The notes: generated by a model from the letters alone, not told the origin. A DNA stretch of 64,000 bases from an uncultured bacterium (GCA_902801025.1 CADCGZ010000028.1:2264-66263); one strand, 5' to 3'. Numbered from the stretch's first letter, positions 3,504-57,650 are shown. Numbers and translations are program-made.

Positions 3504-3587
3504 AGCGCCTTTAGAACAAATACTGCCGAATGCGGTTATTGAAAGGCGTAAAACAATGACACGCTCGCGTTGAATGTGAAGACAATT

Positions 3588-3710
3588 TGTTCCCGAATGG
3601 GAATAAATGAGCGACAAGGTAAGCCAATGTTCAAAAATTTTCCCGAACGGGTAAAATCACTTATCTTGGTGGGTTGGATTGAGTTTTCTTACCCGAACGG
3701 GTAAAATTCT
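3588..3710 (+). promoter_or_regulatory. Three direct repeats cccgaa(t/c)ggg(a/t)aaaat upstream of hipB; candidate HipB operator/promoter
   Basis: ttcccgaatgggaataaat at ~3590, ttcccgaacgggtaaaat at ~3640, tacccgaacgggtaaaat at ~3690, immediately 5' of the HTH gene. Confidence 0.45.
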
Positions 3711-3712
3711 CG

Positions 3713-3970
3713 TTGCGCACTCACATTAATATTTGGTACAATTCCACAATCATGAAAGAAATCAAGTCAACATCAGACCTTGCAAGCATTGTCCGAGCGA
3801 CTCGTAAAAAGCAAGGAATCTCGCAGACTGTCTTGGCACAACTGTCAAATGTTGGGGTCAGATTTGTGTTCGATGTTGAAAATGGCAAGCCAACAGTCCA
3901 GTTTGACAAAGTGCTGTCCATTCTGCGCACGATGGGTGTAACGATGAAGTTTGAACTTCCACCGGAGTGA
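3713..3970 (+). CDS. hipB: XRE-family HTH antitoxin (HipB-like)
   Basis: 85-aa HTH_XRE (QGISQTVLAQLSNVGVRFVFDVENGK); 4 nt upstream of a HipA-like gene. Confidence 0.8.
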   Translation: MRTHINIWYNSTIMKEIKSTSDLASIVRATRKKQGISQTVLAQLSNVGVRFVFDVENGKPTVQFDKVLSILRTMGVTMKFELPPE

Positions 3971-3974
3971 TAGC

Positions 3975-5225
3975 ATGTACGGAGTGCTTAATGTCTATTT
4001 GCTGAACCGGTTTGTCGGCAGGTTCTCGCATGAGTCTGTCGGTGACATATATGCATTTCAATACGACCCAGAATATCTGGCGAATCCAGCGGAGGGTGCG
4101 CTCTCGCATTCCTTGCCGCTGCAGTCGGATGTGTTCGAGTCGGAGGCGGCCTATGGATATTTTGCCAATCTTCTGCCGCCGGCGTACATTCGCAAGAAGC
4201 TCGAGAAGTGTGTGCATATATCTGCAGGAAATGTTTTCGGCTTTCTGCGTGCGCTTGGCGGAGACTGCGCCGGGGCGGTGGCGTTGTACAGAGAAGGCGT
4301 TCGTCCGAATCCGCCGGAGAAGGAGATTCTCCGACCGCTTGAAGAGTCCGAGGCGGTTCGGATACTGAAGTCTCTTCGCATTCGTCCGCTTTATGCGGAT
4401 GGCGAAACTGGATATCGTTATTCAGGCGCCGGTGCCCAGGACAAGCTCATTGCGCGAGTGGCAGAGGGCAAGGTCATTCTTCCGTTGTATGGCACGCCAT
4501 CGACTCATATCGTGAAGCCTGCGACAGGCGATTTCCAGAATTCCGTCGAGAATGAGTGCTTTTGCCAGAAATTGGCGGCTCGCCTTGGGCTGAATTCGTC
4601 GGAATGCGAGATACTGGTTCTGGAGGGGGATCGCTATTTCGTTTCGAAGCGATATGACCGCGCGATGTCGGATGGACGTGTTGCACGCCTTCACCAAGAG
4701 GATTTCTGCCAGATGTTGTCCATTGATCCGGAGCAGAAGTACGAGGAACAGGGCGGGCCTTCTGCCGCCATGTGCATGGAGACGCTTCGAGACGTGAAGG
4801 CTAGTCCTCAGGATCAAATAGCGTTCATTGACGCACTCGTGTACAATTTTCTCGTCGGCAATGCCGACGCGCATGGGAAAAACTATTCGGTTTTGTATCA
4901 TGGCGGACGTGCGTCGTTTTCTCCGCTCTATGATGTGGTTTCGACGGCTGTGTATCCACAGCTCTCGCGGGCGATGGCCATGTCTATCGGCGGCGTGTCT
5001 CGGATTGACGATATCCAAAGGGAATGTTTTTCCCGAATGGCGGAAGAATTCCAGATGTCGCCCAAGTTGGTTCTTTCCAGACTTGACGAGATGGCACGGC
5101 GCATCATGCCTGTCGCTCAGAACCTTGCCGACGAGCTCTCGTTGACGTTCCCATCACCCGTGTACCAAGCGATAATCGACGTGATCGCTGCGCATTCGTC
5201 CCAAGTCGCATCAGATCGCACCTGA
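3975..5225 (+). CDS. hipA: HipA-like serine/threonine kinase toxin
   Basis: HipA N-terminal and C-terminal kinase motifs (AGAQDKL, VGNADAHGKNYSVLY). Preferred start is ATG 3975; the ORF track starts at 3951 overlapping hipB. Confidence 0.8.
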   Translation: MYGVLNVYLLNRFVGRFSHESVGDIYAFQYDPEYLANPAEGALSHSLPLQSDVFESEAAYGYFANLLPPAYIRKKLEKCVHISAGNVFGFLRALGGDCAGAVALYREGVRPNPPEKEILRPLEESEAVRILKSLRIRPLYADGETGYRYSGAGAQDKLIARVAEGKVILPLYGTPSTHIVKPATGDFQNSVENECFCQKLAARLGLNSSECEILVLEGDRYFVSKRYDRAMSDGRVARLHQEDFCQMLSIDPEQKYEEQGGPSAAMCMETLRDVKASPQDQIAFIDALVYNFLVGNADAHGKNYSVLYHGGRASFSPLYDVVSTAVYPQLSRAMAMSIGGVSRIDDIQRECFSRMAEEFQMSPKLVLSRLDEMARRIMPVAQNLADELSLTFPSPVYQAIIDVIAAHSSQVASDRT

Positions 5226-5520: not shown

Positions 5521-7623
5521 ATGACGGAAGAGACAAAGGCCGCAACCGACTTCGGCGCCGATGTGTTCGGCGAAGAGGCGATCAACAAGTATTTGAGCAA
5601 GGACACGGCGAAGAAGCTCCAGGCGACGATTCGGGAAGGGAAGCCGCTCGATCCGTCGATCGCGGGCGAAGTCGCACATGGCATCCGCCACTGGGCGATG
5701 GATCGCGGCGCGACGCACTACACGCACTGGTTCCTCCCGATGACCGGCTCCACCGCCGAGAAGCACGACTCGTTCTTGGAACTCAAGGACGGCGAGCCGA
5801 TCATGCAGTTCAGCGGCAAGAACCTGATCGTCGGCGAGCCCGACGCATCGTCTTTCCCGTCTGGCGGCATCCGCTCCACCTTCGAGGCGCGCGGCTACAC
5901 CGCGTGGGATCCGACGTCGCCGGCGTTCATCAAGCGCCACTCGAACGGCGCCACCTTGTGCATCCCGACCGCGTTCTGCGCATACACGGGCGAGTCGCTC
6001 GACAAAAAGACGCCGCTTCTCCGCTCGATGCAGGCGCTCGACAAGTCGCTAAAGCGCCTCATGAAGCTCTTTGGGCGCGCCGAAGGCCATGCCGCGTGCA
6101 CGCTCGGCGCGGAGCAGGAATACTTCCTCATCGACAAGGGATACTGGAAGAAGCGTCCCGACCTCGTGCTTACGGGTCGGACGCTCTTCGGTGCTCCGTC
6201 CGCTAAGGGCCAGCAGCTCGAAGACCACTACTTCGGCACGATTCCAGATCGCGTCATTTCCTTCATGAACGACGTCGAGCGCGAGCTCTGGAAGCTCGGC
6301 ATCCCGGCGAAGACGCGCCACAACGAAGTCGCGCCCGCGCAGTTCGAGCTTGCGCCGCAGTTCGAGGAGCTCAACCTCGCGAGTGACCACAACATGCTCG
6401 TGATGGATACCTTGCGGAACGTCGCCGAAAAGCACGGAATGAAGTGCCTTCTCCACGAGAAGCCCTACGCGGGCGTCAACGGCTCTGGTAAGCACAACAA
6501 CTGGTCCGTCGCCTTCGGCGGCAGGAACCTCCTCGACCCGGGCAACGACCCGCACGAGAACGCCGTGTTCCTCACGATGCTCTGCGCCGTCATCGAGGCG
6601 GTAGACAAGCATGCCGACCTCCTTAGGGCCTCCGTCGCTGGTGCGGGCAACGACCACCGTCTCGGCGCAAACGAAGCGCCGCCCGCTGTCATCTCGATCT
6701 ATGTCGGCGACCAGCTCGCGGAAGTGCTCGACCGCATCGAGAATCCAAAGGGCGCGAAGCACGAGGAAAAGGGCTCCCTCAAGATCGGCGTCGACACGCT
6801 CCCCGCGATTCCGAAGGACGCGACCGACCGCAACCGCACTTCGCCTTTCGCGTTCACCGGCAACAAGTTCGAGTTCCGCGCTCCGGGATCGAGCGTCTGC
6901 TGCTCCGGCCCGATGACGGTCCTCAACACAATCGTCGCCGAGGCGGTAGACAGGATTGCCGCCGAGCTCGACGCCGCCAAGGTCGCCGGAAAGGCGAAGC
7001 CGGGCGAGCACACCGCGGCGTTCCACGTGGCTCTCCAGAAGATACTGCAGGCCTCGCTCAAGACGCACAAGCGCGTCGTGTTCAACGGCAACGGCTATGA
7101 GGCCGACTGGCCGAAGGAAGCCGAGAAGCGCGGTCTTCCCAATGCGCCAGACACGCTCTCCGCCCTGGCCGCGCTTTCGAAGAAGGAGAACGTCTCCCTC
7201 TTCGAGAAGTACGGCGTCATGACGAAGCGCGAGCTCAAGAGCCGCCACGAGATATTCCTCGAGGAATACGCCAACAAGGTGCGCATCGAAGGCAACACGG
7301 CGCTCGACATCGCAAAGACGATGATCCTCCCAGCCGTCCGCGCCGAGTATCTCGAGGTTGCGAAGGCCTACAACGAGACGGATTCCAGCAACGTGAAAAT
7401 CGCAATCGACATGCTTCACGGGCAGATGACGGAACTTGGCAGCGGACTCGTAAAGATGAAGGAGGCGATAGACTACTTGCAGGACGCGCTGAAGAACTAC
7501 GACACTGCGGACACCCTTGCGAGGATGGCCGAGCTCAGGAAGATCGCAGACTCGCTCGAGGCGGTCATCACGAGCGAAAAGTGGCCGCTTCCGAAGTACC
7601 GCGAAATGCTGTTCTTGTATTAG
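5521..7623 (+). CDS. glnN: Glutamine synthetase type III (GlnN)
   Basis: ~700 aa; GSIII N-terminal signature (YTHWFLPMTGSTAEKHDSF) and catalytic-domain motifs. The upstream in-frame extension to 5383 was rejected (implausible Arg-rich leader). Confidence 0.85.
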   Translation: MTEETKAATDFGADVFGEEAINKYLSKDTAKKLQATIREGKPLDPSIAGEVAHGIRHWAMDRGATHYTHWFLPMTGSTAEKHDSFLELKDGEPIMQFSGKNLIVGEPDASSFPSGGIRSTFEARGYTAWDPTSPAFIKRHSNGATLCIPTAFCAYTGESLDKKTPLLRSMQALDKSLKRLMKLFGRAEGHAACTLGAEQEYFLIDKGYWKKRPDLVLTGRTLFGAPSAKGQQLEDHYFGTIPDRVISFMNDVERELWKLGIPAKTRHNEVAPAQFELAPQFEELNLASDHNMLVMDTLRNVAEKHGMKCLLHEKPYAGVNGSGKHNNWSVAFGGRNLLDPGNDPHENAVFLTMLCAVIEAVDKHADLLRASVAGAGNDHRLGANEAPPAVISIYVGDQLAEVLDRIENPKGAKHEEKGSLKIGVDTLPAIPKDATDRNRTSPFAFTGNKFEFRAPGSSVCCSGPMTVLNTIVAEAVDRIAAELDAAKVAGKAKPGEHTAAFHVALQKILQASLKTHKRVVFNGNGYEADWPKEAEKRGLPNAPDTLSALAALSKKENVSLFEKYGVMTKRELKSRHEIFLEEYANKVRIEGNTALDIAKTMILPAVRAEYLEVAKAYNETDSSNVKIAIDMLHGQMTELGSGLVKMKEAIDYLQDALKNYDTADTLARMAELRKIADSLEAVITSEKWPLPKYREMLFLY

Positions 7624-7668
7624 GGGTCAGGGGTTAGGAGTCAGGAGTCAGTGAGTAGTGATTAGTGA
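7622..7668 (+). repeat. Family E tandem heptamer repeat (aggagtc)n at the glnN 3' end / purF leader
   Basis: gtattaggggtcaggggttaggagtcaggagtcagtgagtagtgattagtga. Related copies at 9573-9626 and 57611-57650, each immediately after a stop codon and 20-40 nt before the next start. Confidence 0.7.
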
Positions 7669-7674
7669 TATCAA

Positions 7675-9039
7675 ATGACTGATGAACTAAAGCACGAATG
7701 TGCCGTGGCGATGGTGGTCTTGAGAAAGTCCGCCGTCGCCACCGGCGATTTCGGTGGGACAAAGCTTTCGCTCCTTCTCGAAAAACAGCACAATCGCGGG
7801 CAGGACGGCGCGGGCGCGGCAATACTCTCGGCCAATCCCGAACCTGGCGAGACACCGTACTGGATCGCCAAGTCTGCGTCCGCTACACCGCTCACGGATG
7901 TGCTTGGAATGATCGGGAAGAGAAGCAGTGTTCAGACAGGATTTGAAAGGGTCTTTCTCGGTCATCTTCGCTACGCCACGTTCGGGAAAAACGACGTGGC
8001 GTTCTGTCATCCATTCGTGCACGAGTCGAGCGAACTGAATCATACGCTTCTTCTCGCCGGAAACTTCAACCTCACAAACGCCCACGAGCTTTTCGACGAC
8101 TACCGCCACCGCGGTTCATTCCCGACGAGCAAGTCGGACGGCTATCTCATCTGCGAGATTATTGCACAGGCGCTGAAAAATATTAGCCGTGTAGAACATG
8201 TAGAGCATGTAGAATTAGAACCGAATCTACATGATTCTACATGTTCTGCATGGTCAGAATCTGCTTTGTCACGCGCTATCTCCACGGCATTGAAGAACGC
8301 CGACGGCGCATGGACGCTCTGCGGCATGACCGCAGACGGATGGGCGTTTGCGACGCGCGACCCGCACGGCATCAGGCCTGGCTGGCACTACATCGACGAC
8401 GATGTCGTTGTCGTCGCCTCCGAGCGTGCCGCCATACAGGCGGCGTTCGACGTGCCGCCCGAAGCCGTGAAGGAGCTTCCGCCTGGCGAAGCGCTTGTCG
8501 TCTCGCCGGAAGGGGAAGTCAAGTTTGTTGATTTGAACCGTGCAGAACATGTAGAACGTGTAGAAAGCAATACTTCTGATCTACATGTTTCTACATGTTC
8601 TACACGGCTTGAAAAACCACTTGCCCGTCCCTGCTCTTTCGAGCGCATCTACTTCTCCCGTGCGAACGATGCCGACATCCACCGCGAGCGCAAGGCGCTT
8701 GGCGCGGCACTTGTGCCGCGGATCCTCGAGGCCGCCAATGCGCCGATGGACCGCATCTTCTTCAGCTACATTCCCAACTCCGCGCGCATCGCCTTTCATG
8801 GACTTCTGGAAGATTTGTTCAAGAGATGTGTTTCACCGCAGAGCCGCGTTAATAATATCCCGCGCTTTGGAGAGGTGGCGGTGAAGGACGCGAAGTTCCG
8901 CACGTTCATCGCTGACGCTGCGGCAAGGCGCGAGTTCTACAAGCATGTCTACGACGTGACCTACGGGCTCGTCAAGAAGGACGATACGCTCGTCGTGCTC
9001 GACGATTCGATCGTGCGCTTGGGCCGAAGAGAATCGTGA
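7675..9039 (+). CDS. purF: Amidophosphoribosyltransferase (PurF), N-terminal/major part; ends prematurely at a frameshift/deletion inside the PRPP-binding motif
   Basis: Propeptide plus catalytic Cys (MTDELKHECAV..), RGQDGAG, Fe-S ligand CSFERIYFSRAND, VVLDDSIVR then stop. Contains two in-frame family B repeat insertions (8186-8252, 8538-8608). Confidence 0.7.
   Translation: MTDELKHECAVAMVVLRKSAVATGDFGGTKLSLLLEKQHNRGQDGAGAAILSANPEPGETPYWIAKSASATPLTDVLGMIGKRSSVQTGFERVFLGHLRYATFGKNDVAFCHPFVHESSELNHTLLLAGNFNLTNAHELFDDYRHRGSFPTSKSDGYLICEIIAQALKNISRVEHVEHVELEPNLHDSTCSAWSESALSRAISTALKNADGAWTLCGMTADGWAFATRDPHGIRPGWHYIDDDVVVVASERAAIQAAFDVPPEAVKELPPGEALVVSPEGEVKFVDLNRAEHVERVESNTSDLHVSTCSTRLEKPLARPCSFERIYFSRANDADIHRERKALGAALVPRILEAANAPMDRIFFSYIPNSARIAFHGLLEDLFKRCVSPQSRVNNIPRFGEVAVKDAKFRTFIADAAARREFYKHVYDVTYGLVKKDDTLVVLDDSIVRLGRRES
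8186..8252 (+). repeat. Family B palindromic element (gtagaacatgtagaa / ttctacatgttctac arms), copy 1, in frame inside purF
   Basis: Imperfect 66-bp hairpin; translated as SRVEHVEHVELEPNLHDSTCSAW. Confidence 0.75.
8538..8608 (+). repeat. Family B palindromic element, copy 2, in frame inside purF
   Basis: ccgtgcagaacatgtagaacgtgtagaaag...ctacatgtttctacatgttctacacgg; translated NRAEHVERVESNTSDLHVSTCSTRLEKP. Confidence 0.75.
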
Positions 9040-9572
9040 TCGCCTCTTCCGCGCCACCAATCCGCTACCCAGACTGCTATGGCATCGACATGTCGACGCT
9101 GGGAGAGCTTGTAGCATTCAAGGCGCTTGTAAATTTGCTGGATGGGGAACGGGGAACGTATCCCCCGAGCGAAGCGAGCGCCGAAGGCGGCTCAATGCGG
9201 GGTGGGAACGGGGAACGGGAGTTGCGCGAAGCGCTTGCCGAAATTGAACATCTACACGTTTCTACATGTTCTACACGGTTAAAATCATTAAACCCTCTCG
9301 CATCCCTCTATGCGCGCTTCACTGAAAAGCAACACGCTGCAGAAATTGCCCGACTTCTTACCCCTCCGGGAATGAAGGCCGAAGTCGTTGTGGTCTATCA
9401 GACGATTGAAGACTTGCATAAGTCTCTTGCTCCCGTTCCCGGTTCCCGGTTCCCCGTTCCCCGAATTGGTGACTGGTATTTCACTGGCGACTATCCGACA
9501 CCTGGCGGATACAAGGTGCTGCGAAAGGCGCTTCTGAATTACTTGGATAAGAATTCGGAAAGGTCGTATTAG
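9036..9572 (+). CDS. purF: PurF C-terminal fragment in a different frame (GTG 9036 overlaps the upstream stop); carries three repeat insertions
   Basis: SAPPIRYPDCYGIDM ... GDWYFTGDYPT match the PurF C-terminus. In-frame family A (9144-9221, 9430-9465) and family B half-unit (9250-9278) insertions. Confidence 0.6.
   Translation: MIASSAPPIRYPDCYGIDMSTLGELVAFKALVNLLDGERGTYPPSEASAEGGSMRGGNGERELREALAEIEHLHVSTCSTRLKSLNPLASLYARFTEKQHAAEIARLLTPPGMKAEVVVVYQTIEDLHKSLAPVPGSRFPVPRIGDWYFTGDYPTPGGYKVLRKALLNYLDKNSERSY
9144..9221 (+). repeat. Family A element (ggggaacggggaacg terminal direct repeats flanking a gtatcccccgagcgaagcgagcgccgaaggcgg core), in frame in purF
   Basis: Translated [26 protein letters not shown]. 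The same unit occurs in pyrG (12768-12838) and, reversed and duplicated, in carB (15488-15627). Confidence 0.75.
9250..9278 (+). repeat. Family B half-element (right arm only) in frame in the purF C-terminal fragment
   Basis: atctacacgtttctacatgttctacacgg followed by ttaaaat, as in other copies. Confidence 0.6.
9430..9465 (+). repeat. Family A core oligomer, reverse orientation (cccgttcccggttcccggttccccgttcccc), in frame in purF
   Basis: Translated APVPGSRFPVPRI. Confidence 0.6.
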
Positions 9573-9626
9573 GGGTCAGTAATTAGGAGTCAGGAGTCAG
9601 TAGTCAGGGGTCAGGAGTCAGAGAAA
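9573..9626 (+). repeat. Family E tandem heptamer repeat between purF and carA
   Basis: gtattaggggtcagtaattaggagtcaggagtcagtagtcaggggtcaggagtcagag. Confidence 0.7.
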
Positions 9627-9633
9627 GGAATTT

Positions 9634-10827
9634 ATGAACTATAGTGAAAAGTGGAAGGTGGAACGCGAACGCAAGGCGTATCTCGCACTTGCGGACGGCA
9701 CTGTGTTCCACGGCGTCGCTTTTGGCGCTAAGAAGGACGCGCTTGGCGAAGTCGTCTTCAACACCGGTATGTGCGGCTATCAGGAAATACTAACCGATCC
9801 AAGCTACGCCGGGCAGTTCGTCACGCTTACCCCCGCAGAAGTCGGTAACTACGGCATAAATGCCGAAGACATAGAAAGCCGCAAGTTGTTCTTATCGGGT
9901 CTTGTCATTGGCGATTTGACCGCGCCTAGCAACTGGCGCTCCGAAAAGAGCTTGGACGACTACCTGAAGGAGAACGGCGTACCTGGCATTTATGGCGTCG
10001 ATACGCGCGCTCTAACGTTGCACTTGAGAGATCATGGTAACCAGAAAGCCTTTCTGTACGTTGGGGAACGGGGAATGGGGAACGGGGAACGGGAGGCGGT
10101 TGCCAAGGCGCGTGAATGGGAAGGGCTCGACGGCCAGGACTATGCGGCAAAGGTGACATGCGAGAAGGGGTATGAGTTTAAGACAGGATTAACAGGATTA
10201 ACAAGATTATCTGGGGACATGTCCACAGACCCCAAAAATCCTGTAAATCTTGTAAATCCTGTCAAAAGAATAGTCTGCTACGACTTCGGCGTGAAGACAA
10301 ATATCCTCCGTTCGCTTGCGTCGTGGGCAAAGGTCACCGTCGTTCCCGCGAAGACGCCTGCTGAAGAAGTCCTCAAGATGAAACCTGACGGCGTGTTCCT
10401 CTCAAACGGCCCCGCCGACCCCGCGGCAGTTACCTACGCCATAGAGAACATCAAAAAGTTGTTGGGGCCACTTCCCATAATGGGAATTTGTTTGGGGCAT
10501 CAGTTGCTCTCGCTTGCCTGTGGTGCGAAGACTGGGCGGCTAAAGTTCGGTCACCACGGCTGTAACCATCCAGTGAAGAACCTTGCGACAGGCCATGTGG
10601 AGATAACGAGTCAGAACCACAACTTCGCAGTCTTGCCAGAGACGGTTCCGGATTGCCTTGAAGTCACGCACATAAACCTCAACGACAACTCTATCGAGGG
10701 TGTCAGGCACAAGACGCTTCCCGCGTTCTCGGTGCAGTACCACCCCGAGTCTTGCCCCGGTCCGCACGACTCAAAGTATCTCTTCGACGAATTCAGAAAG
10801 ATGGTATTAGCCGTGCAGAACGTGTAG
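9634..10827 (+). CDS. carA: Carbamoyl-phosphate synthase small (glutamine amidotransferase) subunit, with two in-frame repeat insertions in the inter-domain linker
   Basis: GEVVFNTGMCGYQEILTDPSY, CLGHQLL, GHHGCNHPV, YHPES motifs. Insertions: family A 10063-10095 (GERGMGNGERE) and family D 10183-10264. Confidence 0.9.
   Translation: MNYSEKWKVERERKAYLALADGTVFHGVAFGAKKDALGEVVFNTGMCGYQEILTDPSYAGQFVTLTPAEVGNYGINAEDIESRKLFLSGLVIGDLTAPSNWRSEKSLDDYLKENGVPGIYGVDTRALTLHLRDHGNQKAFLYVGERGMGNGEREAVAKAREWEGLDGQDYAAKVTCEKGYEFKTGLTGLTRLSGDMSTDPKNPVNLVNPVKRIVCYDFGVKTNILRSLASWAKVTVVPAKTPAEEVLKMKPDGVFLSNGPADPAAVTYAIENIKKLLGPLPIMGICLGHQLLSLACGAKTGRLKFGHHGCNHPVKNLATGHVEITSQNHNFAVLPETVPDCLEVTHINLNDNSIEGVRHKTLPAFSVQYHPESCPGPHDSKYLFDEFRKMVLAVQNV
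10063..10095 (+). repeat. Family A oligomer (ggggaacggggaatggggaacggggaacggg) in frame in carA
   Basis: Direct sequence identity to other family A cores. Confidence 0.65.
10183..10264 (+). repeat. Family D 82-bp palindromic element (acaggattaacaggattaacaagatt ... aatcctgtaaatcttgtaaatcctgt) in frame in carA
   Basis: Near-perfect inverted repeat around the ggggacatgtccacagacccc centre; translated KTGLTGLTRLSGDMSTDPKNPVNLVNPV where E. coli CarA has only a short linker. Confidence 0.7.
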
Positions 10828-10925
10828 ATCGTGTAGAAAGGAGAAATTTAACCATGTGGAACATGTAAAACATCCAGTAGAAAGTGAATATGCAAATCTA
10901 CATGTTTCTACATGTTCTACACGGT
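10811..10925 (+). repeat. Family B element, long copy (~115 bp), at the carA stop / carA-pyrG intergenic region
   Basis: ccgtgcagaacgtgtagatcgtgtagaaag....ctacatgtttctacatgttctacacgg; supplies the last codons and stop of carA. May also act as a terminator-like hairpin. Confidence 0.75.
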
Positions 10926-10938
10926 TAAATAAACAGCC

Positions 10939-12872
10939 ATGAAAAAGCAAGTCAAATACGTATTTATCACCGGCGGCGTGGTTAGCTCGCTTGGAAAGGG
11001 CGTCACAAGCGCGTCACTTGCGCTTCTCTTGAAGAGTCGCGGCTACAGGGTCTTCATGCAGAAGCTCGACCCGTATCTCAACGTCGATCCCGGCACGATG
11101 TCGCCCTACCAGCACGGCGAGGTGTTCGTGACAGACGACGGCGCAGAGACAGACCTCGACCTCGGCCACTACGAGCGTTTCGCGGGCGTGACGTGCTCTA
11201 AGGCGTCGAACTACACCTCTGGCCGTATCTACTCAGCCGTCCTCGCGCGCGAACGCGCGGGCGGCTACCTCGGCGGAACGGTGCAGGTCGTGCCGCACAT
11301 CACCGACGAAATCAAGGCGGCGATCAGGAGTGCCGGCGAAGCGCATGGCGACGAGCCCGCGCCAGACATCGTCCTCTGCGAAATAGGCGGAGTATCGGGC
11401 GACATCGAGTCGCTCCCGTTCCTCGAGGCCGCGCGCCAGTTCCGCTTCGAAGAGGGAAATGAGAACACTTGCTTCGTGCACCTGACGCTCGTTCCCTATC
11501 TCAAGGCGGCGGGCGAGCTCAAGACAAAACCGTCGCAGCACTCCGTCGGCATGCTGCGAAACATCGGCATCATCCCTGACATCCTTGTCTGCCGCACCGA
11601 AATGACGATTCCCGAGGAGCACCTCAAGAAGCTCGCCATGTTCTGCAACGTGAAGCGCGAGTGCGTAATCGAGGAAAAGGATGTCGCAGACTCTGTCTAT
11701 GCCGTGCCGCGCGAACTGCGCGAGCAGGGTCTCGACGAGCAGGTCTTGAGGCAGGTGCGTCTCGACCTTTGGCCGATTAAGCACACGGTCTGGGACACGC
11801 TCGTCCGCAAGGCGACGCAGCCGAAGAAGCGCTGCCGTATCGCCCTTGTCGGGAAGTACATCTCGATACGCGACGCCTACAAGTCAGTTCACGAGGCCTT
11901 GCAGCACGCCGGCATGGCAAACGACTGCAAGGTCGAAGTCGTGCCTATCGAAGCGGAAGAAATCTTAACGCAGAGGCGCAGAGGCGCAGAGGCGGGGAAA
12001 GAATCGTCCTCGTCTGCATCTGACGGCCAGCAAGCCGGCAAATCATCAAAATCTCTCTGCGACTCTGCGTCTCTGCGTTTAAAAAATATCGACGGCATTC
12101 TCGTCCCCGGCGGCTTTGGGTCGAGGGGTGTAGAGGGCAAGATCGCCGCGATCAAGTATGCACGCGAGAAGAAGATTCCGTTCCTCGGCATCTGCCTCGG
12201 CATGCAGTGCACTGTCATCGAGTATGCGCGCGATGTCCTCGGCTGGAAAGACGCCAACTCGACGGAGTTCGACGAGAACACCACGCACCCCGTGATCGAC
12301 TTGATGGAAGAGCAGCGCGGCGTCACGCAGAAGGGCGGCACGATGCGCCTCGGCGCTTATCCGTGCGTCCTCGAGAAGGGCTCTCTCGCTGATAAGCTGT
12401 ATAGCCACAAAGAACACAAAGATAACTCTGCGCCTCTCGGCACTCGCTTCGCTCGGCTTGGCTCGCTACAAAACGCGAGCCCCGCTTCCGCGGCGGTTAC
12501 GCGACTCTGCGTTAAAAACAAAGACGCGCCCATTATTTCCGAGCGACATCGCCACCGCTACGAGCTTGCGAATGGCGGCAAAGTGCAGAAGGCGCTGACG
12601 GCCGCAGGGCTCAATGTAAGCGGCACGTCGCCTGACGGAAAACTCGTCGAGATAGTGGAGCTGCCGGGCCACCCCTACTTCATCGCCTCGCAGTTCCACC
12701 CCGAGTTCAAGTCGCGCCCGACAATCCCGCATCCGCTGTTCAACGGCCTTGTAAAAGCCGCGTTGAGGAACGGGAAACGGGGAACGGGTAACGGGGAACG
12801 TATCCCCCGAGCGAAGCGAGTCGCCGAAGGCGATGCCCTAGCAGGGGTGGTAACGGGAAGAGGGAGTGAAGA

Positions 12873-12876: not shown

Positions 12877-16199
<3,323 letters not shown>

Positions 16200-17612: not shown

Positions 17613-17774
17613 GACATAATTATACCATAAATTCGGCGGGGACCTAAGCAGAGTCGGGGTTGGGCGCAATTCGGCGGGGTCCGAAGGCTCCTCCTCGGGG
17701 AGCCCTCGGCGAATACGCCGAATCCCCTCGCTCGGACCTTCGCTCCCCCACCGAATTATGGTATAATTATACCT
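17613..17774. repeat. ~160-bp dyad-symmetric element between divergent DRTGG and kdsB genes; terminal inverted repeats ataattataccataaattcgg / ccgaattatggtataattat each carry an outward-facing extended -10 box
   Basis: Perfect 20-bp terminal inverted repeats; internal attcggcgggg repeats and a ggctcctcctcggggagcc hairpin. The -10 boxes sit 6 nt from each start codon. Confidence 0.6.
17760..17768 (+). promoter_or_regulatory. Extended -10 promoter box TGGTATAAT, 6 nt upstream of the kdsB ATG (leaderless)
   Basis: tggtataat at 17760-17768; ATG at 17775. Confidence 0.45.
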
Positions 17775-21427: not shown

Positions 21428-21485
21428 ACATGCAGAACATGAAGAAATCTACACGATCTACACGTTCTACACGGCTAAATAACTG
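21428..21485 (+). repeat. Family B palindromic element between ligA and pyrC
   Basis: accatgtagaacatgcagaacatgaagaaatctacacgatctacacgttctacacgg followed by ctaaataa. Confidence 0.7.
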
Positions 21486-31755: not shown

Positions 31756-31773
31756 TTCTTTCTGGTGATTTTT

Positions 31774-31800
31774 AACGCAGAGACGCAGAGGCGCAGAGAA
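31774..31800 (+). repeat. Family C half-element (taacgcagagacgcagaggcgcagag) in the nusB-ribD spacer
   Basis: Same arm as the in-frame pyrG/carB copies. Confidence 0.6.
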
Positions 31801-34810: not shown

Positions 34811-36670
34811 ATGAAAACGATAACAATTCTTGCCGCAGTCATGTCTGTTTCGAGTGTGGCTTCGGCTGGAACGATGCTTACTACCTGGGGAGAGAAGGTT
34901 ACGAGCGAGAACGCCTGGCGTGACTATCCACGCCCTCAGATGGTGCGCCAGAACTGGACCAACCTCAACGGAGAATGGGAGTATGCGGTGACGAGCGTGA
35001 CCAATACGCCCGGACGCCCCGAGCAATGGGACGGGAAGATCCGCGTACCGTTCTGCATCGAGTCTGCGCTTTCCGGCGTCGGGCGGCTTCTGGAACCCGA
35101 CGAGTTCCTTTGGTACACGCGCAAGATATCATGCGACCCGAAACCCGGCGAAAGAATGCTGCTCCACTTCGGCGGCGTAGACTTCCGCACGATGGTGTTC
35201 ATCGGGCATGACGAGGTGACGGATGTTCCGCACGAAGGCGGGCAGAATCCCTTTACGCTCGATATCACGGACTTCGTGAAGAAAGGCGAGAACGAGCTTA
35301 CCGTCTGCGTGTGGGATCCAACCGAGAGATTCATCAACTCCCGAGGCAAGCAGTGCTTCAAGCCCCACGGATGCTTCTACACGCGCGTCTCCGGAATCTG
35401 GCAGACGGTGTGGATGGAGACGGTGCCCGAGAAGTACATCTCCGGCTACAGCGTAGTTGCAGACATCGACAAGGGGGAAGTGACGCTAAGTTTTCGGGGA
35501 ACGGGGAACGGGGAACGGGGAACGGTTGAAATCGAGACCTCTGCGTCTCCGCGCCTCTGCGTTGAAAAGACATTTGCCCCCAACGAGCCGGTTACAGTCA
35601 AGTTGCCCAAGCCAGTTGAATTGTGGTCGCCGGAGAACCCGAAGCTCTACAACTTCACCGCGAAGTACGGCAAGGACGAGATCAAGGGCTACTTCGGCAT
35701 GCGCAAGTTCGAGAAGCGGGCTGACGCGAAGGGGATTCTTCGGTTCTTTCTCAACAACGAGCCATATTACGTGATGGGCACTCTCGACCAGGGATGGTGG
35801 CCGGACGGGCTCTTGACGCCGCCTTCGGAAGAGGCGATGGCGTTCGACATCAAGACCCTCAAGGACTGCGGCTTCAACACCATGCGCAAGCACATCAAGG
35901 TCGAGCCGTTCCGCTACTATGCACTCTGCGACAGGATGGGCCTTCTCGTGATACAGGACCTCCCGAGCGGCAACGGAAACGCGGTCGATCCAATTGGGGT
36001 TGGCGTCGTTCCGCGCTATGGCCTGCAGCGCCAGGAGATGAAAGAGATGATGGACGTCCTCCAGACATTCCCCTCGATCGTGATGTGGAACCCCTACAAC
36101 GAGGGATGGTCGCAGCCAGGCGAATTCCTTACTCATTCCATGCTTGACTTCGTGCGCCGCTACGACCGTACGCGTCTCGTGAACGGTCCAAGCGGGTGGT
36201 GGGACTGGGAAGGCGGGCATCTCCTTCCAAATGGCTGGGACTGGAACAGGCGTGTTCTTACGAATCACAGGCCGGAGGGCGAATGCGAGGCGGCTGACAC
36301 GGTGGATCTCCATCTCTACCGCGGCCCCGACATGCTTGCGGTGAATCCGCGCCGCATAAGTTTCCTTGGCGAGTTCGGCGGGCTCGGACATCCCGTAGAA
36401 GGGCATCTATGGAAGGAGGCCAAGGGCAGCTGGGGATATGGCGGCATTTCGGACACGAAGAATCGCGAAGGTCTTGAAAAGGCATATCTCGGCCTCATGA
36501 AAAAACTCGGCGATCTCGCGGAGAAGGGACTTGGCGGTTCTATCTACACGCAGACGACCGACGTTGAGATCGAGATCAACGGTCTCCTAACATACGACCG
36601 AAAGGTACTGAAGTACAATCCAGAAGTCCTCAAGGCCGCACATGAGGCGGTCATCAGGCGCACAAAATGA
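34811..36670 (+). CDS. Glycoside hydrolase family 2-like (beta-galactosidase/mannosidase/glucuronidase type), secreted, with in-frame family A and family C repeat insertions
   Basis: GH2 sugar-binding N-domain (NLNGEWEY.., LLHFGGVDF...VFIGHDEV) and catalytic TIM region (NEPYY..., MWNPYNEGW). Repeat insertion at 35496-35563 (GTGNGERGTVEIETSASPRLCVEK). Confidence 0.7.
   Translation: MKTITILAAVMSVSSVASAGTMLTTWGEKVTSENAWRDYPRPQMVRQNWTNLNGEWEYAVTSVTNTPGRPEQWDGKIRVPFCIESALSGVGRLLEPDEFLWYTRKISCDPKPGERMLLHFGGVDFRTMVFIGHDEVTDVPHEGGQNPFTLDITDFVKKGENELTVCVWDPTERFINSRGKQCFKPHGCFYTRVSGIWQTVWMETVPEKYISGYSVVADIDKGEVTLSFRGTGNGERGTVEIETSASPRLCVEKTFAPNEPVTVKLPKPVELWSPENPKLYNFTAKYGKDEIKGYFGMRKFEKRADAKGILRFFLNNEPYYVMGTLDQGWWPDGLLTPPSEEAMAFDIKTLKDCGFNTMRKHIKVEPFRYYALCDRMGLLVIQDLPSGNGNAVDPIGVGVVPRYGLQRQEMKEMMDVLQTFPSIVMWNPYNEGWSQPGEFLTHSMLDFVRRYDRTRLVNGPSGWWDWEGGHLLPNGWDWNRRVLTNHRPEGECEAADTVDLHLYRGPDMLAVNPRRISFLGEFGGLGHPVEGHLWKEAKGSWGYGGISDTKNREGLEKAYLGLMKKLGDLAEKGLGGSIYTQTTDVEIEINGLLTYDRKVLKYNPEVLKAAHEAVIRRTK
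35496..35525 (+). repeat. Family A oligomer (ggggaacggggaacggggaacgggg) in frame in the GH2 gene
   Basis: Identical core to the purF/carA/pyrG/carB copies. Confidence 0.65.
35538..35563 (+). repeat. Family C arm (cctctgcgtctccgcgcctctgcgtt) in frame in the GH2 gene, adjacent to the family A unit
   Basis: Matches the ctctgcgtctctgcgtt arm of the pyrG element. Confidence 0.55.
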
Positions 36671-39098: not shown

Positions 39099-39128
39099 TG
39101 TCGTTATCATTGCAACTCTCCGAGTTTT

Positions 39129-39137
39129 TGGTATAAT
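39129..39137 (+). promoter_or_regulatory. Extended -10 box TGGTATAAT 7 nt upstream of the ATG at 39145 (leaderless)
   Basis: gagtttttggtataatttacttcATG. Confidence 0.45.
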
Positions 39138-42480: not shown

Positions 42481-44874
42481 ATGTATCTAAAGCAGCTCGA
42501 CATAGTCGGATTTAAGAGTTTCGCCGACAAGACGAAGCTCACCTTCGATCCTGGCCTTATCGCCATCGTGGGTCCGAATGGCTGCGGCAAATCCAACGTC
42601 TCCGATGCGATCCGCTGGGTGCTTGGCGAGCAGCGTCCTACGGCGCTCAGGTGCTCGAAGCTCGTTGATGTCGTCTTCAACGGCACCGACACGAGAAAGC
42701 CCCTTGGCCTTGCGGAAGTAACGATCACCTTTGCGGACTGCGAGAAGGAGCTTGGCACCGACTACCACGAGGTGACGATACAGCGCCGCGTCTATCGCGA
42801 CGGCTCGGGCGAATATTTCCTAAACAAGCAGCCGTGCCGTCTCAGGGACATCCAGCACCTCCTGATGGGCACCGGCATCGGCACGTCGTCCTACTCCGTC
42901 ATGGCCCAGGGCCAGATCGACGCGATTCTCTCTTCAAAGCCGGAGGACCGCCGCGGCGTGTTCGAGGAAGCGGCTGGGATCACGAAGTTCAAGGCCGACC
43001 GCAAGGAGGCCCTGAGGAAGATCGAGCAGACCGAGCAGAACCTGCTGCGCGAAGCCGACGTCCTCAAGGAGATGAAGCGCCAGATCGGCTCTCTCCAGCG
43101 TCAGGTCGGCAAGGCGAAGAAGTACAAGGAACTTCACGACGAGCTGCGCGTCCTCGATATCTACGTTTCTCGGCAGAAGATCAAGGCCTTCGACGAGGAG
43201 CTTGTTCAGAACGCGTCGAACAGGCGCGACATCGACAAGTCGATTGAAGAAGCGTCTGGTGCCGTGGCCGAGGCGGAGCGCGGACAGCAGGAACTTCACG
43301 CCCAGGTACACGAGCTCGAGGAGCGTCTCCAGTCGCTCGCGTCACGCCAGGCGGCGGCGGACAACGCCTACAGCCGCGCCAACGAAGTCATCGGCGTGAA
43401 CGCGCAGCGCATCGAGGAGTACGGCCAGTTCGCGGAGCGCGACGAGCGCGAGATAGCCGACGCAAAGGCGCAGCTCGAGGAAATCGCGATGCAGGTCGAT
43501 TCCCTCGACCAGAAGACGCGTCTTCTTACCGAGTCGCTTGCCACGGCGAAGGATGCGCTCGCCGAGAGCGAGGCCGCGTTTTCCGAGATTCAGGCGAAGA
43601 TCGACGAGAAGCGCAGCGACGTACAGCGCCGCAGGCACGAAATCGCGAACACTACGCTTACGGGCATTCTCGCGGAGGACGCTAAAGTCTCGCGCGAGGG
43701 CAAGACTGAGACTTGGCCCGCCGGCACAAAGGTCACGACGGCCGACAGGCGCGAGATACTCATGGCCGAGATCGCTGCGAGCGAGGACGAACTGCGGACG
43801 CTTGAAGTCTCCACGATGTCGGTTTCCCAGCAGCTCACGGAGCGTCGTATCGCGACGAGCCAGATGGAGCAGGAACTTTCGTTCGTCGGCCAGCAGAACG
43901 ATTCTGCGCGCCGTCGCCGCGACGAGCTGCAGAGGGCGGTCGACGGGCGTCTCGAGGGCATACAGCGCTATCATGACTCCATAGCGCGTCTCAAGGAGGA
44001 GTCGGGCGATCTTCTCGGACAGCTCGAGGAACTGAAGGCCGCGGCTGCGGACTGCCGCGCCGAGATGGAAGACGAGCGAGCCCGTCGCCAGACGATGTTC
44101 GAGAGGATTGCCGAAGTCGACCGCGACGTAGCGGCGAAGCGCGCCGAGCTCGACCGTGCGCGCGACTTCAGGGGCAAACTCGAAGTCGCCGCAGCAGAGG
44201 CGACGATGCGCCGCCAGAACATCTACGACCACCTTCAGGACGAATACGGCCTATTTGCCGACGCGGTCCTGCGCGAGCCCGACCCCAAGTGGGAGGACGG
44301 CGTGGAGCCGCCGCATGCAGAGCTCGAGGCCAAGGTGGCGCGGCTCCAGTCCGAAATCGCCGCGCTCGGGCCGGTCAACATGGTTGCAATCGACGAGTGC
44401 CGCGAGCTCGAGGAACGCTATGCGAAGGAGAAGGCCCAGGAAGAGGACCTCTTGGCGGCGAAGGCGCAGATACTTTCGCTCATCGACAACCTGAACCTCA
44501 CGTCGAGCGAGATGTTCAAGAAGACGTTCGAGCAGGCGAACGCCAACTTCCAGACGATGTTCACGCGGCTTTTCGGCGGCGGCGAGGCGCGGCTCGTGCT
44601 TTTGGACAACGAGGAGGACCCGCTTGAATGCGGCATCGACATCATTGCGCGTCCTCCGGGCAAGCGTCCGCAGAGCGTGACGCTGCTTTCCGGCGGCGAA
44701 CGCACGATGACGGCCGTCGCGCTTCTCTTCTCGATCTTCATGATCAAGCCCGCGCCGTTCTGCATGCTCGACGAGCTCGACGCCGCGCTTGACGATGCGA
44801 ACATCGGCAGGTTCCGTCAGCCGCGTAATCTCCATGAAGCTCAGCGACCTCGGCGCAGGTGCAGGCAAGAAGAA
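42481..44874 (+). CDS. smc: SMC-family chromosome segregation ATPase, atypically short (~798 aa): no recognisable hinge, C-terminus truncated after Walker B, and continuous in frame with lpxB in this sequence
   Basis: N-terminal head (GPNGCGKSN, FEEAAGITKFK), long coiled coil, signature LSGGERTM and Walker B LDELDAALD. Then only ~20 residues before the lpxB Met; the H-loop (QFIVITH) is missing. A -1/+1 alternative frame would terminate at a TGA overlapping the lpxB ATG. Confidence 0.6.
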
Positions 44875-45978
44875 ATGAAGCTGCTCGTTCTCGCCGGTGA
44901 GGAGTCGGGTGTCCACTACGCGGAGCGGATATCTGCGGCAGTCCGCACGCGCCGCCCCGATGTGGAGATACGCGGCTATTCCGACTACGGGTTCAAGACC
45001 GCCGACCTCGCGGTGTTCGGGATATGGGCGGTCTTGAGGCGGATATTCTTCTTTCTCAGGGTGAAGCGCACGATGGTTCGTGCTATCGACGAGTGGAAGC
45101 CAGATGTCGTCTGCACGATAGACTATCCCGGCATGAACCTGAAGCTCGCGGCCTACGCTAAGTCGAAGGGCATCAAGGCGGTTCACGTAGTCTGTCCGCA
45201 GGTCTGGGCTTGGCACCAGGGCCGCATACCGCGCATAGAACGCTCTCTAGACAAGATCTGCTGCTTTTTCCCGTTTGAACCGGCGATATTCCGCCCTGGG
45301 CTCGCCGAGTTCGTCGGCCATCCTCTCGCGCAGGAATTTGAAGGCGGTGCGAACGGCGGCGAGGGGAGGCGCGAGAAGGGTCTTGTTGCGCTACTCCCCG
45401 GTTCGCGTCTCGGCGAGATCGAAAAGCACCTCCCGACGCTTCTTGAGGCAGTCGCGACGCTTGAGGGGATTCGCGTTGCGATTCCTGCCGCGAACGAACG
45501 CGCACGTGCCGCGATTGAAAGAATCGTGGCCAATTTCAAAACCAAGCTTTCAACTTTAAACTTTAAACTTTCAACTCTAACTGTCCAGTCGGGTGGCGCA
45601 CGCGAACTTCTTCGCCGTGCCGATGTCGCTGCAGTGGCGAGCGGAACGGCGACGCTTGAGGCCGCGCTTGCCCGTTGCCCGACTGTTCTCGTCTACAAGG
45701 TAGGTCCCATTCTCGCAGCGTTCCTGCGACGCGCGATAAACGGCGTGAAGCATGTCGGGCTTGCGAACATCATCGCCGAGAAGTCTGGCGCGGAATGTCC
45801 GATGCCAGAGCTCCTTCAGGAGAATTTCACCGTCGAGGCCGTGCGCGGCTATCTTGAACGCTGGCTGGGCGACCCTGCGTCGCGAGCGGAAGCGGCAAAG
45901 AAGCTCGACAAGACGCTTGAAATGCTCGAGAGTAGCGGCGACGCCTACGCTCGCATTGCCGATGCGCTACTGGCGTAA
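44875..45978 (+). CDS. lpxB: Lipid-A-disaccharide synthase LpxB, with an in-frame family F repeat insertion
   Basis: [12 protein letters not shown]..., [21 protein letters not shown] motifs; insertion at 45530-45592. Confidence 0.8.
45530..45592 (+). repeat. Family F tandem repeat (ctttcaact / ctttaaact units) in frame in lpxB
   Basis: aatttcaaaaccaagctttcaactttaaactttaaactttcaactctaactg. Confidence 0.65.
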
Positions 45979-54688: not shown

Positions 54689-54702
54689 GGTAGGGCTGTT
54701 TT

Positions 54703-54711
54703 TGGTATAAT
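54703..54711 (+). promoter_or_regulatory. Extended -10 box TGGTATAAT upstream of the trpB-like gene (GTG start, RBS aaggaga)
   Basis: gtttttggtataatcatatcttaaggagaagtttGTG. Confidence 0.4.
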
Positions 54712-57610: not shown

Positions 57611-57650
57611 TGTCAGGGGTCAGTGCATAGGAGTCAGGAGTCAGTTGTAA
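57611..57650 (+). repeat. Family E tandem repeat after the FHA-MoxR gene / before the DUF58 gene
   Basis: gtcaggggtcagtgcataggagtcaggagtcagttgtaag. Confidence 0.65.

Follow-up and report, generated by a model that had tools for sequence, protein, structure and literature searches.

Palindromic repeats that lie in frame within protein-coding genes are known from Rickettsia. The Rickettsia palindromic elements (RPEs), as summarised in later accounts of the original description (Ogata et al. 2000, via PMC10969869 and PMC3733652), occur in frame in unrelated metabolic and housekeeping genes, and RPE-4 and RPE-6 carry a CGTC tag (PMC3733652). Intragenic, in-frame copies of GTAG- or CGTC-tagged repetitive extragenic palindromic (REP) sequences are described both from Rickettsia and from Opitutus terrae, a verrucomicrobium of the same superphylum as the organism considered here (PMC3733652). 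The subject of this analysis is a palindromic repeat, family C, in a 64,000-nt stretch of DNA (GCA_902801025.1 CADCGZ010000028.1:2264-66263; hereafter the window) from a rumen member of the Kiritimatiellae. The closest named PyrG proteins come from Kiritimatiellae metagenome-assembled genomes (MAGs), and the genome loci retrieved for comparison, designated here by L numbers, are rumen MAGs of the RUG and RGIG series. Family C, which is dispersed, polymorphic between strains, nested with other repeats, co-varying in its arms, carried in intact reading frames and present in phage-like contigs, probably consists of selfish, non-autonomous foldback repeats resembling RPEs and translated at tolerant sites. 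In-frame palindromic repeats are thus known from Rickettsia, but the form seen here has not been described before; no paper on Kiritimatiellae repeats was found in the literature, where the unit sequences turned up only as unrelated primers.

The repeat unit of family C is a heptamer core, C[G/A]CA[G/A]AG, with one or two spacer bases. The true period is therefore 8 or 9 nt, and the description of the arms as plain heptamer repeats in an earlier note on this DNA needs correction. The 8-nt period is found at pyrG site 1, in the nusB-ribD spacer and in a GH2 gene, the 9-nt period in carB and in the left part of pyrG site 2. Tandem cores number 15 in the window, where 0.02 are expected by chance (6 matches to CRCARAG-N-CRCARAG and 9 to CRCARAG-NN-CRCARAG, against 0.01 each in 100 dinucleotide shuffles). 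The elements lie where the earlier note had placed them, and its observation of such a family is confirmed, since the copies stand far above chance and three complete elements fold strongly as single strands.

The first of these, at pyrG site 1 (11965-12082; plus strand, as are all copies below), has a fold of -61 kcal/mol (z -6.8). Its left arm (11965-11992) is TTAA followed by three copies of CGCAGAGG, and its right arm (12053-12082) is three CTCTGCG cores with 1-nt spacers followed by TTAA; the 25-nt arms are 92% complementary and enclose a loop of about 60 nt (63). The complete carB elements have 27-nt arms of three 9-nt units, GAACGCARA against CTTTGCGNN, in the general pattern TTAGCC-CRCARAG-AA-CGCAGAG-AA-CGCAAAG against CTTTGCG-NN x 3. 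At carB site 1 (14178-14265; -39.3 kcal/mol, z -9.9) this reads TTAGCC, CACAAAG AA CGCAGAG AA CGCAAAG, a 30-nt loop, three CTTTGCG cores and GC, with a right arm that translates as LCELCDLCG. The 9-nt element at carB site 2 (14475-14542; -43 kcal/mol, z -9.0) has a loop of 10 nt.

The remaining copies are partial or rearranged. The element at pyrG site 2 (12402-12519) is a composite of two decayed 9-nt left units (CACAAAG, 12406-12421), right units CTCTGCG at 12426 and 12505, and the end GTTAAAA; its right arm is interrupted by a nested, in-frame 63-nt insert of another repeat family that contains GCTTCGCTCGG (12438-12500, plus strand), and the whole element does not fold (z -0.9). The copy in the nusB-ribD spacer, previously noted as a half unit, is indeed in the spacer and can be refined to a lone left arm of the 8-nt period (31772-31798), TTAA plus three cores, directly 5' of GGAGAGGGATG, the ribD start. 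The GH2 copy had been described as a palindrome in frame. The frame is kept, but the copy is a lone right arm (35539-35565; CCTCTGCG, TCTCCGCG, CCTCTGCG, then TTGA) that folds no better than shuffles (z -1.5) and is fused to a (CGGGGAA) x 4.4 array of another family (35495-35525, plus strand), yielding a chimeric insert.

The three open reading frames (ORFs) that bear family C encode CTP synthase (pyrG), the large subunit of carbamoyl-phosphate synthase (carB) and a GH2 glycosidase. All are open across the inserts, and each insert is flanked on both sides by homology to Pfam domains or solved structures, in agreement with the earlier claim of a dispersed palindromic family inserted in frame in these genes; the identities of nusB and ribD and the GH2 domains derive from a Pfam scan. 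Alignment of PyrG to solved CTP synthases splits into three blocks that break exactly at the inserts, leaving residues 345-380, residues 489-532 and the tail beyond 612 without counterpart. The allele at pyrG site 1 is 36 codons longer than that of L081 between the same anchors, consistent with the roughly 35 added residues reported earlier. These positions were judged by sequence alignment in place of an AlphaFold model of the enlarged PyrG, which was unusable (mean pLDDT, the predicted local distance difference test score, of 37) because the available homologues are all at least 80% identical. We place the first two CarB insert sites in the oligomerisation domain (PF02787); the CarB protein has no Pfam match to this domain, which is recognised weakly in its relatives. 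Given the intact, stop-free frames in essential genes, translation of the inserts into additional peptide segments, absent from solved homologues, is almost certain.

Comparison of close relatives reveals extensive turnover at these positions. In PyrG and CarB orthologues at least 84% identical, the same sites hold different families, different unit numbers, hybrids or nothing. The best 120 PyrG homologues, all at least 80% identical, range in length from 557 to 634 residues, where solved bacterial enzymes have about 545-550, and the variation is confined to site 1, site 2 and the C-terminus. A metagenome scan with PyrG returned, among the matches listed, mostly distant CTP synthases and added three close loci. 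At site 1, 44 different sequences occur among the 86 homologues that could be parsed. They are hypervariable and repeat-structured, and not the conserved ordinary sequence that would have spoken against a repeat. Between the same DNA anchors, the 8-nt type of family C is found in the window and L168, with CACAGAG cores in L002, L006 and L167, and the 9-nt type in L083, L087, L166 and L001, as well as in L169 in another frame. L293 has a hybrid of an 8-nt-type end and 9-nt units; L084, L085 and L292 carry the unrelated ACAGGATT family; L003, L005 and L088 carry other families; and L081 and L082 have a 12-nt loop without an element. Unit number varies too, with LLAAESAK...LCDLCG representing two units and LLAAKNAESAK...LCDLCDLCG three, and the loops sometimes contain extra inserts (ISLNPTRRPQS). 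The core variants CGCAGAG, CACAGAG, CGCAAAG and CACAAAG and the 8- and 9-nt spacings intergrade via hybrids (L293 at site 1, L292 at site 2), so the arm variants do not define clean subfamilies.

Site 2 provides the sole clean comparison of filled and empty states. L087 has no element there (YSTTQIS), and L293 has a complete, almost loopless 9-nt hairpin. In the L292 allele, two left units of 9 nt precede four right units of 8 nt, and L083 has this same allele plus a block of exactly 63 nt inside a right unit, with no flank duplicated. The 63-nt block lies at the same junction in the window and L084, where one 9-nt unit has been lost. Among the PyrG homologues, some protein alleles have the block and others lack it. 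The composite, nested nature proposed for the second pyrG copy is thereby confirmed. CarB sites 1-3 are similarly variable, with families swapped or missing among proteins 87-93% identical. The carA-pyrG junction lacks any element in L168, where the carA stop overlaps the pyrG start (AAAATGA), and holds at least four different families in other loci; in the window (10812-10930), the carA stop codon (GTG TAG) lies inside an element of the CGTGTAGAA family that also fills the spacer before pyrG. Assembly artefacts are ruled out as a source of these alleles by the presence of identical ones in independent ENA, JGI and NCBI assemblies.

The arms themselves bear marks of a shared history. The arms of 19 nine-nt elements, drawn from Kiritimatiellae loci and from IMG/VR contigs, were aligned against each other. 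Pairing is seen at the invariant core positions, and the two variable ones switch jointly between A-U and G-C. Cells with such double changes number 58, compared with 28.9 +/- 5.9 in shuffles, and none of 500 shuffles reaches 58. The spacer columns fail to pair in 6-12 of the 19 elements. Of the core mismatches, 15 are compatible with G.U pairing and 18 are not; with wobble and non-wobble mismatches equally common, a sense RNA fold was rejected as the preserved feature. CpG deamination was likewise rejected as the sole source of the CG-to-CA/TG co-variation, as it would have to act on one strand in the left arm and on the other strand in the right, and the second position to co-vary lies outside CpG. 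The three units of an element usually carry the same variant (14 of 19, as read from the alignment). The 9-nt copies at different loci have common asymmetries: the left arm has AA/AG spacers and the right arm AC/AT, and the middle unit contains a G:T pair, a pattern that points to a common source copy as a better fit than independent origin. Among the 8-nt copies, every core in the window is CGCAGAG, and every one in L002 and L167 is CACAGAG, which suggests homogenisation or recent spread within genomes, as far as the few genomes sampled allow.

These data bear directly on whether the inserts might have arisen in place, through slippage and palindrome-templated mutation of native low-complexity loops without transfer between loci. 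Unit numbers do change by slippage, and the short pyrG site 1 loops of distant relatives (L007) hold GCCGCAAAAG-like sequence. Arms of 27-33 nt that are nearly identical and share termini and asymmetries nevertheless recur in unrelated genes, spacers and phage-like contigs, against a chance expectation of 0.01, and the nested insert of 63 nt is either wholly present or wholly missing. An origin in place is strongly disfavoured and is the least probable of the explanations weighed here.

Family C is one of at least 10 families in the window and its relatives that share a common build. Each arm contains three to five tandem units of 7-9 nt and spans about 25-30 nt whatever the unit length, and the loop is variable; the core sequences include CATGTAGAA, ACAGGATTA, GGGGAAC, AGGAGTC, CACGAAA, GGGACAACC, AGTTGGAG, GACTTCG and TCCGGAAAT. 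Readings of the cores as Chi-like sequences or DnaA boxes were dropped, given that at least 10 unrelated cores have the same architecture. No family C double core occurs in 1.37 Mb of pyrG loci from other taxa, and three related Kiritimatiellae loci (L003, L007 and L008) have no long hairpins. The window has 9 hairpins with arms of at least 20 nt, where about 0.6 are found in shuffles. Seven of the 9 lie between 8.1 and 14.6 kb, in purF-carA-pyrG-carB. About 9 kb of purF, carA, pyrG and carB hold at least 12 repeat elements from several families. Long hairpins are almost absent from glnA (GSIII) upstream and from the 48 kb downstream.

This clustering would suit an alternative in which the repeats are not selfish DNA and serve instead as selected cis-acting signals, such as mRNA stability or pausing elements of a purine/pyrimidine operon or elements of phage 5'-untranslated regions (UTRs). 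The copy directly 5' of the ribD start would fit this view, as would lone arrays that have a ribosome-binding site and start codon within 80 nt downstream, for which the same orientation is seen 41 times and the opposite 22 times. The orientation bias is weak, however, and in-ORF counts are equal both ways, for which reasons a role of lone arrays as 5'-UTR signals was rejected. Alleles also turn over between strains more than 90% identical, some sites are empty, and many unrelated sequences occupy the same place. The core mismatches described above show no preference for G.U pairs, and Rfam 15 gave no match at the gathering score, the window yielding only sub-threshold microRNA hairpin models and five IMG/VR loci only a tRNA. 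Selected signals thus seem decidedly unlikely.

Several of the other families can be described more fully. The CATGTAGAA / TTCTACATG family (8183-8252, 8541-8609, 9251-9283, 10846-10930 and 21429-21478) occurs inside purF and at gene junctions and has three-unit 9-nt arms with TTAGCC...GGCTAA or GGTTAA ends, as in 9-nt family C. The ACAGGATTA / AATCCTGT family lies in carA of the window (10182-10263, translated GLTGLT...NPVNLVNPV) and in L084 at 2949, 5244, 7029 and 9155; in close relatives it takes the place of family C at pyrG site 1 and carB site 1. GGGGAAC heptamer arrays (GNGER/GTGNG) are found at 9144-9219, 10063-10093, 12767-12800 and 35495-35525, and in reverse complement at 9432-9463 and 15604-15626, either alone or flanking a 59-nt unit with CCGAGCGAAGCGAG (9155-9210, 12800-12860 and 15493-15607); these arrays are probably family A of the earlier note. 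AGGAGTC/AGGGGTC heptamer arrays (7622-7669, 9571-9621 and 57629-57644) occupy spacers just upstream of purF, carA and a DUF58 gene.

Arrays of family C type are additionally found in phage-like DNA. The triple 9-nt array pattern occurs in at least 120 IMG/VR contigs and the 8-nt pattern with a TTAAC end in 2. The four contigs inspected are phage-like by gene content: L174 (Mu-like), L214, L239 (tail genes) and L291 (portal and capsid). By blastn, these contigs and the window have only arrays in common. The arrays in the contigs are mostly lone arms at gene junctions, with 23 of 173 having an inverted partner no more than 150 nt away. L291 contains an 8-nt array that is in frame (TQRRRGAE) and falls in the linker of a fusion between prohead protease and capsid; a 93% identical homologue shares it, and four homologues 80-85% identical lack it. 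Homologues of the L291 capsid protein give no informative names as to the hosts of these contigs. The same capsid-protease linker (L291 6838-8616) contains, in addition, NPKSEIG repeated 4-5 times in tandem (ILHSPFS when read from the opposite strand), with a copy number that differs between close homologues.

The reading that best accommodates these findings, selfish foldback repeats similar to RPEs, would operate as follows. The repeats would spread in trans through a hairpin- or end-specific enzyme encoded outside the window, and phages may carry them between hosts. Insertions would survive only at the few sites that the protein tolerates, and the same sites would therefore be re-used. Each element would be kept internally uniform by slippage of its units during replication and by one arm being copied or corrected from the other, while families drift apart. 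Hybrids and nested inserts also mark the evolution of the elements.

A set of observations weighs against this reading. Neither the pyrG nor the carA-pyrG alleles provide a clean empty site or an unambiguous target-site duplication for family C. The TTAA at both ends of 8-nt copies can be read as a duplication or as part of inverted termini, and TTAA...TTAA and TTAG...CTAA are both readable as the latter. At pyrG site 1, the "empty" allele (EEWKETK) is set apart by 12 nt of other sequence, and extra spacer is present at the carA-pyrG junctions, one comparison there suggesting a TCAA duplication. A Pfam scan of the 36 ORFs of the window found no transposase, integrase or reverse transcriptase, and in the loci examined no transposase-like gene is bracketed by a left and a right array; a search for an autonomous parent among left and right arrays 0.4-3.5 kb apart met only ordinary or phage ORFs. 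In the IMG/VR contigs, 150 of the 173 arrays are without the inverted partner. The existence of many sequence-unrelated families with one architecture is poorly explained by a set of sequence-specific transposases, and the concentration of long hairpins in one part of the window is unexplained. Translation of the inserts is read from their intact frames. Finally, loops differ between copies, which is unusual for MITEs (transposable elements of the miniature inverted-repeat kind).

Comparison with MITEs is otherwise instructive. Family C has terminal inverted repeats as they do (TTAAC-core...core-GTTAA and TTAGCC...GGCTAA), and like the bacterial MITEs (PMC10969869) it is short and non-autonomous, with counterparts among them that form in-frame ORF fusions. 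Unlike them, it shows no conservation of internal sequence and no demonstrable target-site duplication, and the loci examined contain no parent insertion sequence. The resemblance to RPEs is closer. Both are short palindromes of several families, lie in frame in unrelated housekeeping genes whose frame is kept and whose protein is presumably functional, and have intergenic copies too; against the RPE size of a palindrome of about 100-150 bp in many copies, the hairpins here are 60-120 nt and far above chance. RPEs, in contrast, inhabit an obligate intracellular alphaproteobacterium and not free-living gut Kiritimatiellae. Family C differs further in arms of three to five tandem 7-9-nt units, in loops that are not conserved and in lacking the CGTC tag, as well as in its extreme site turnover, with other families taking its place among the changes, in strains more than 90% identical, and in the arrays of phage-like contigs. 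RPEs are set apart here by host, termini and tag, their sequences not having been aligned. Palindromic amphipathic repeat coding elements (PARCELs) are also protein-coding repeats that show dyad symmetry and are believed to pass from genome to genome, but they form 25-residue tandem domains in proteins of unknown function, unlike the single hairpin inserts in conserved enzymes seen here. In eukaryotes, foldback (FB) transposons have inverted arms of short tandem subrepeats around a variable centre. The architecture of family C recalls theirs (cf. PMC3169594), although FB arms are hundreds to thousands of bp long and FB elements are eukaryotic and untranslated, and no homology is implied.

A more specific version of the mobile-element reading is that the repeats are of REP or REPIN type and moved as single-stranded hairpins by a REP-associated tyrosine transposase (RAYT) or a Y1 transposase of IS200/IS605 type encoded elsewhere in the genome. 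REPs and REPINs resemble the present elements in forming hairpins, in their abundance, in the coexistence of several families per genome and in some in-frame intragenic copies (Opitutus terrae and Rickettsia, PMC3733652), one example lying within the Planctomycetes-Verrucomicrobia-Chlamydiae (PVC) superphylum; the elements can also supply a neighbour's stop codon, as for carA here. The clean 63-nt nested insertion without target duplication is in keeping with this kind of movement. The termini are TTAAC or TTAGCC, however, with no GTAG or CGTC tag; the arms are tandem arrays of 7-9-mers and not single short palindromes of 20-40 nt, and Pfam identified no RAYT or Y1 transposase among the 36 window ORFs. 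Mobilisation of this type is unlikely, if less so than regulatory signals.

Constancy of shape with diversity of sequence brings to mind the attC sites of integrons, whose R boxes have the consensus RYYYAAC/GTTRRRY. Family C elements might accordingly be structure-recognised recombination sites exchanged as cassettes at fixed positions by a shape-reading recombinase. Such a mechanism would suit the different families at exactly the same sites, the unpaired spacers between paired cores, the arrays at gene junctions in phage-like contigs and the YTTAAC...GTTAAR ends of the 8-nt copies, which approximate R boxes (GCTTAAC...GTTAAAA). The 9-nt copies, in contrast, end in AGCC...GGCT and not AAC...GTT, only about 40% of the arrays in IMG/VR contigs being preceded by AAC. 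Moreover, each arm has three repeated boxes in place of an R and an L box, the elements lie inside essential genes and not at the 3' ends of cassettes in arrays, and no integrase is found nearby in the window. Cassette exchange of the attC kind therefore appears very unlikely.

Some room is left, on the other hand, for a broader shape-guided exchange, in which the hairpins would be substrates and not common transposon remnants. An enzyme would read stems of about 27 bp made of repeated short boxes, whatever their sequence, and would swap, nest and delete them at fixed places. It is left room because of the constant architecture, the exact re-use of sites, the unpaired spacers between paired cores and the AAC...GTT-like ends of 8-nt copies, and its probability is low, comparable to that of RAYT-type mobilisation. 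If true, it would explain the unrelated families at identical intragenic sites in near-identical strains and their sharing by phages, and it would represent a new way for the peptide sequence of essential enzymes and of phage structural proteins to vary in frame.

Other features of the window stand apart from the tandem-arm families. The purF gene is split into ORFs 7675-9039 and 9036-9572, as 43 nt after ...GATTCGATCGTGC, encoding the RGNTMKNAILPMLDR segment, are missing relative to L083, L084 and L292 (window 9010-9040). This deletion shifts the frame, and the split gene is either a real pseudogene or an assembly error. A single 1165-residue ORF (42481-45975) combines an SMC-like ATPase (residues 2-779) with LpxB, lipid-A-disaccharide synthase (802-1123), and may reflect fusion of two genes, loss of a stop codon or an error in the sequence. 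Between divergent genes, 89 nt are bracketed by a 33-nt inverted repeat (ATAATTATACCATAAATTCGGCGGGGACC..., 17616-17648 and 17738-17770) that is unrelated to the tandem-arm families. Repeated TTTTCCCGAACGGGTAAAAT palindromes (3571-3707) upstream of a hipA-like kinase gene (3951-5225) are possibly operator sites, and an identical GTTTTTGGTATAAT at 39124-39137 and 54698-54711, about 20-35 nt before the gene starts at 39145 and 54732, resembles an extended -10 promoter element.

In-frame selfish DNA in essential genes has so far been a Rickettsia curiosity accompanied by scattered intragenic REPs, and here it is dense in a gut and rumen lineage. With dozens of alleles per site in metagenomes, gain, loss, nesting, slippage and arm homogenisation become directly readable, and the alleles amount to a natural experiment on where, and to what extent, CTP synthase and carbamoyl-phosphate synthase accept foreign peptide. 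Phages emerge as possible carriers of such repeats. The findings also serve as a warning that, in Kiritimatiellae proteins, repeat DNA is the origin of length variation and of what look like low-complexity inserts, with consequences for annotation, for domain detection, as in the CarB oligomerisation domain, and for strain typing.

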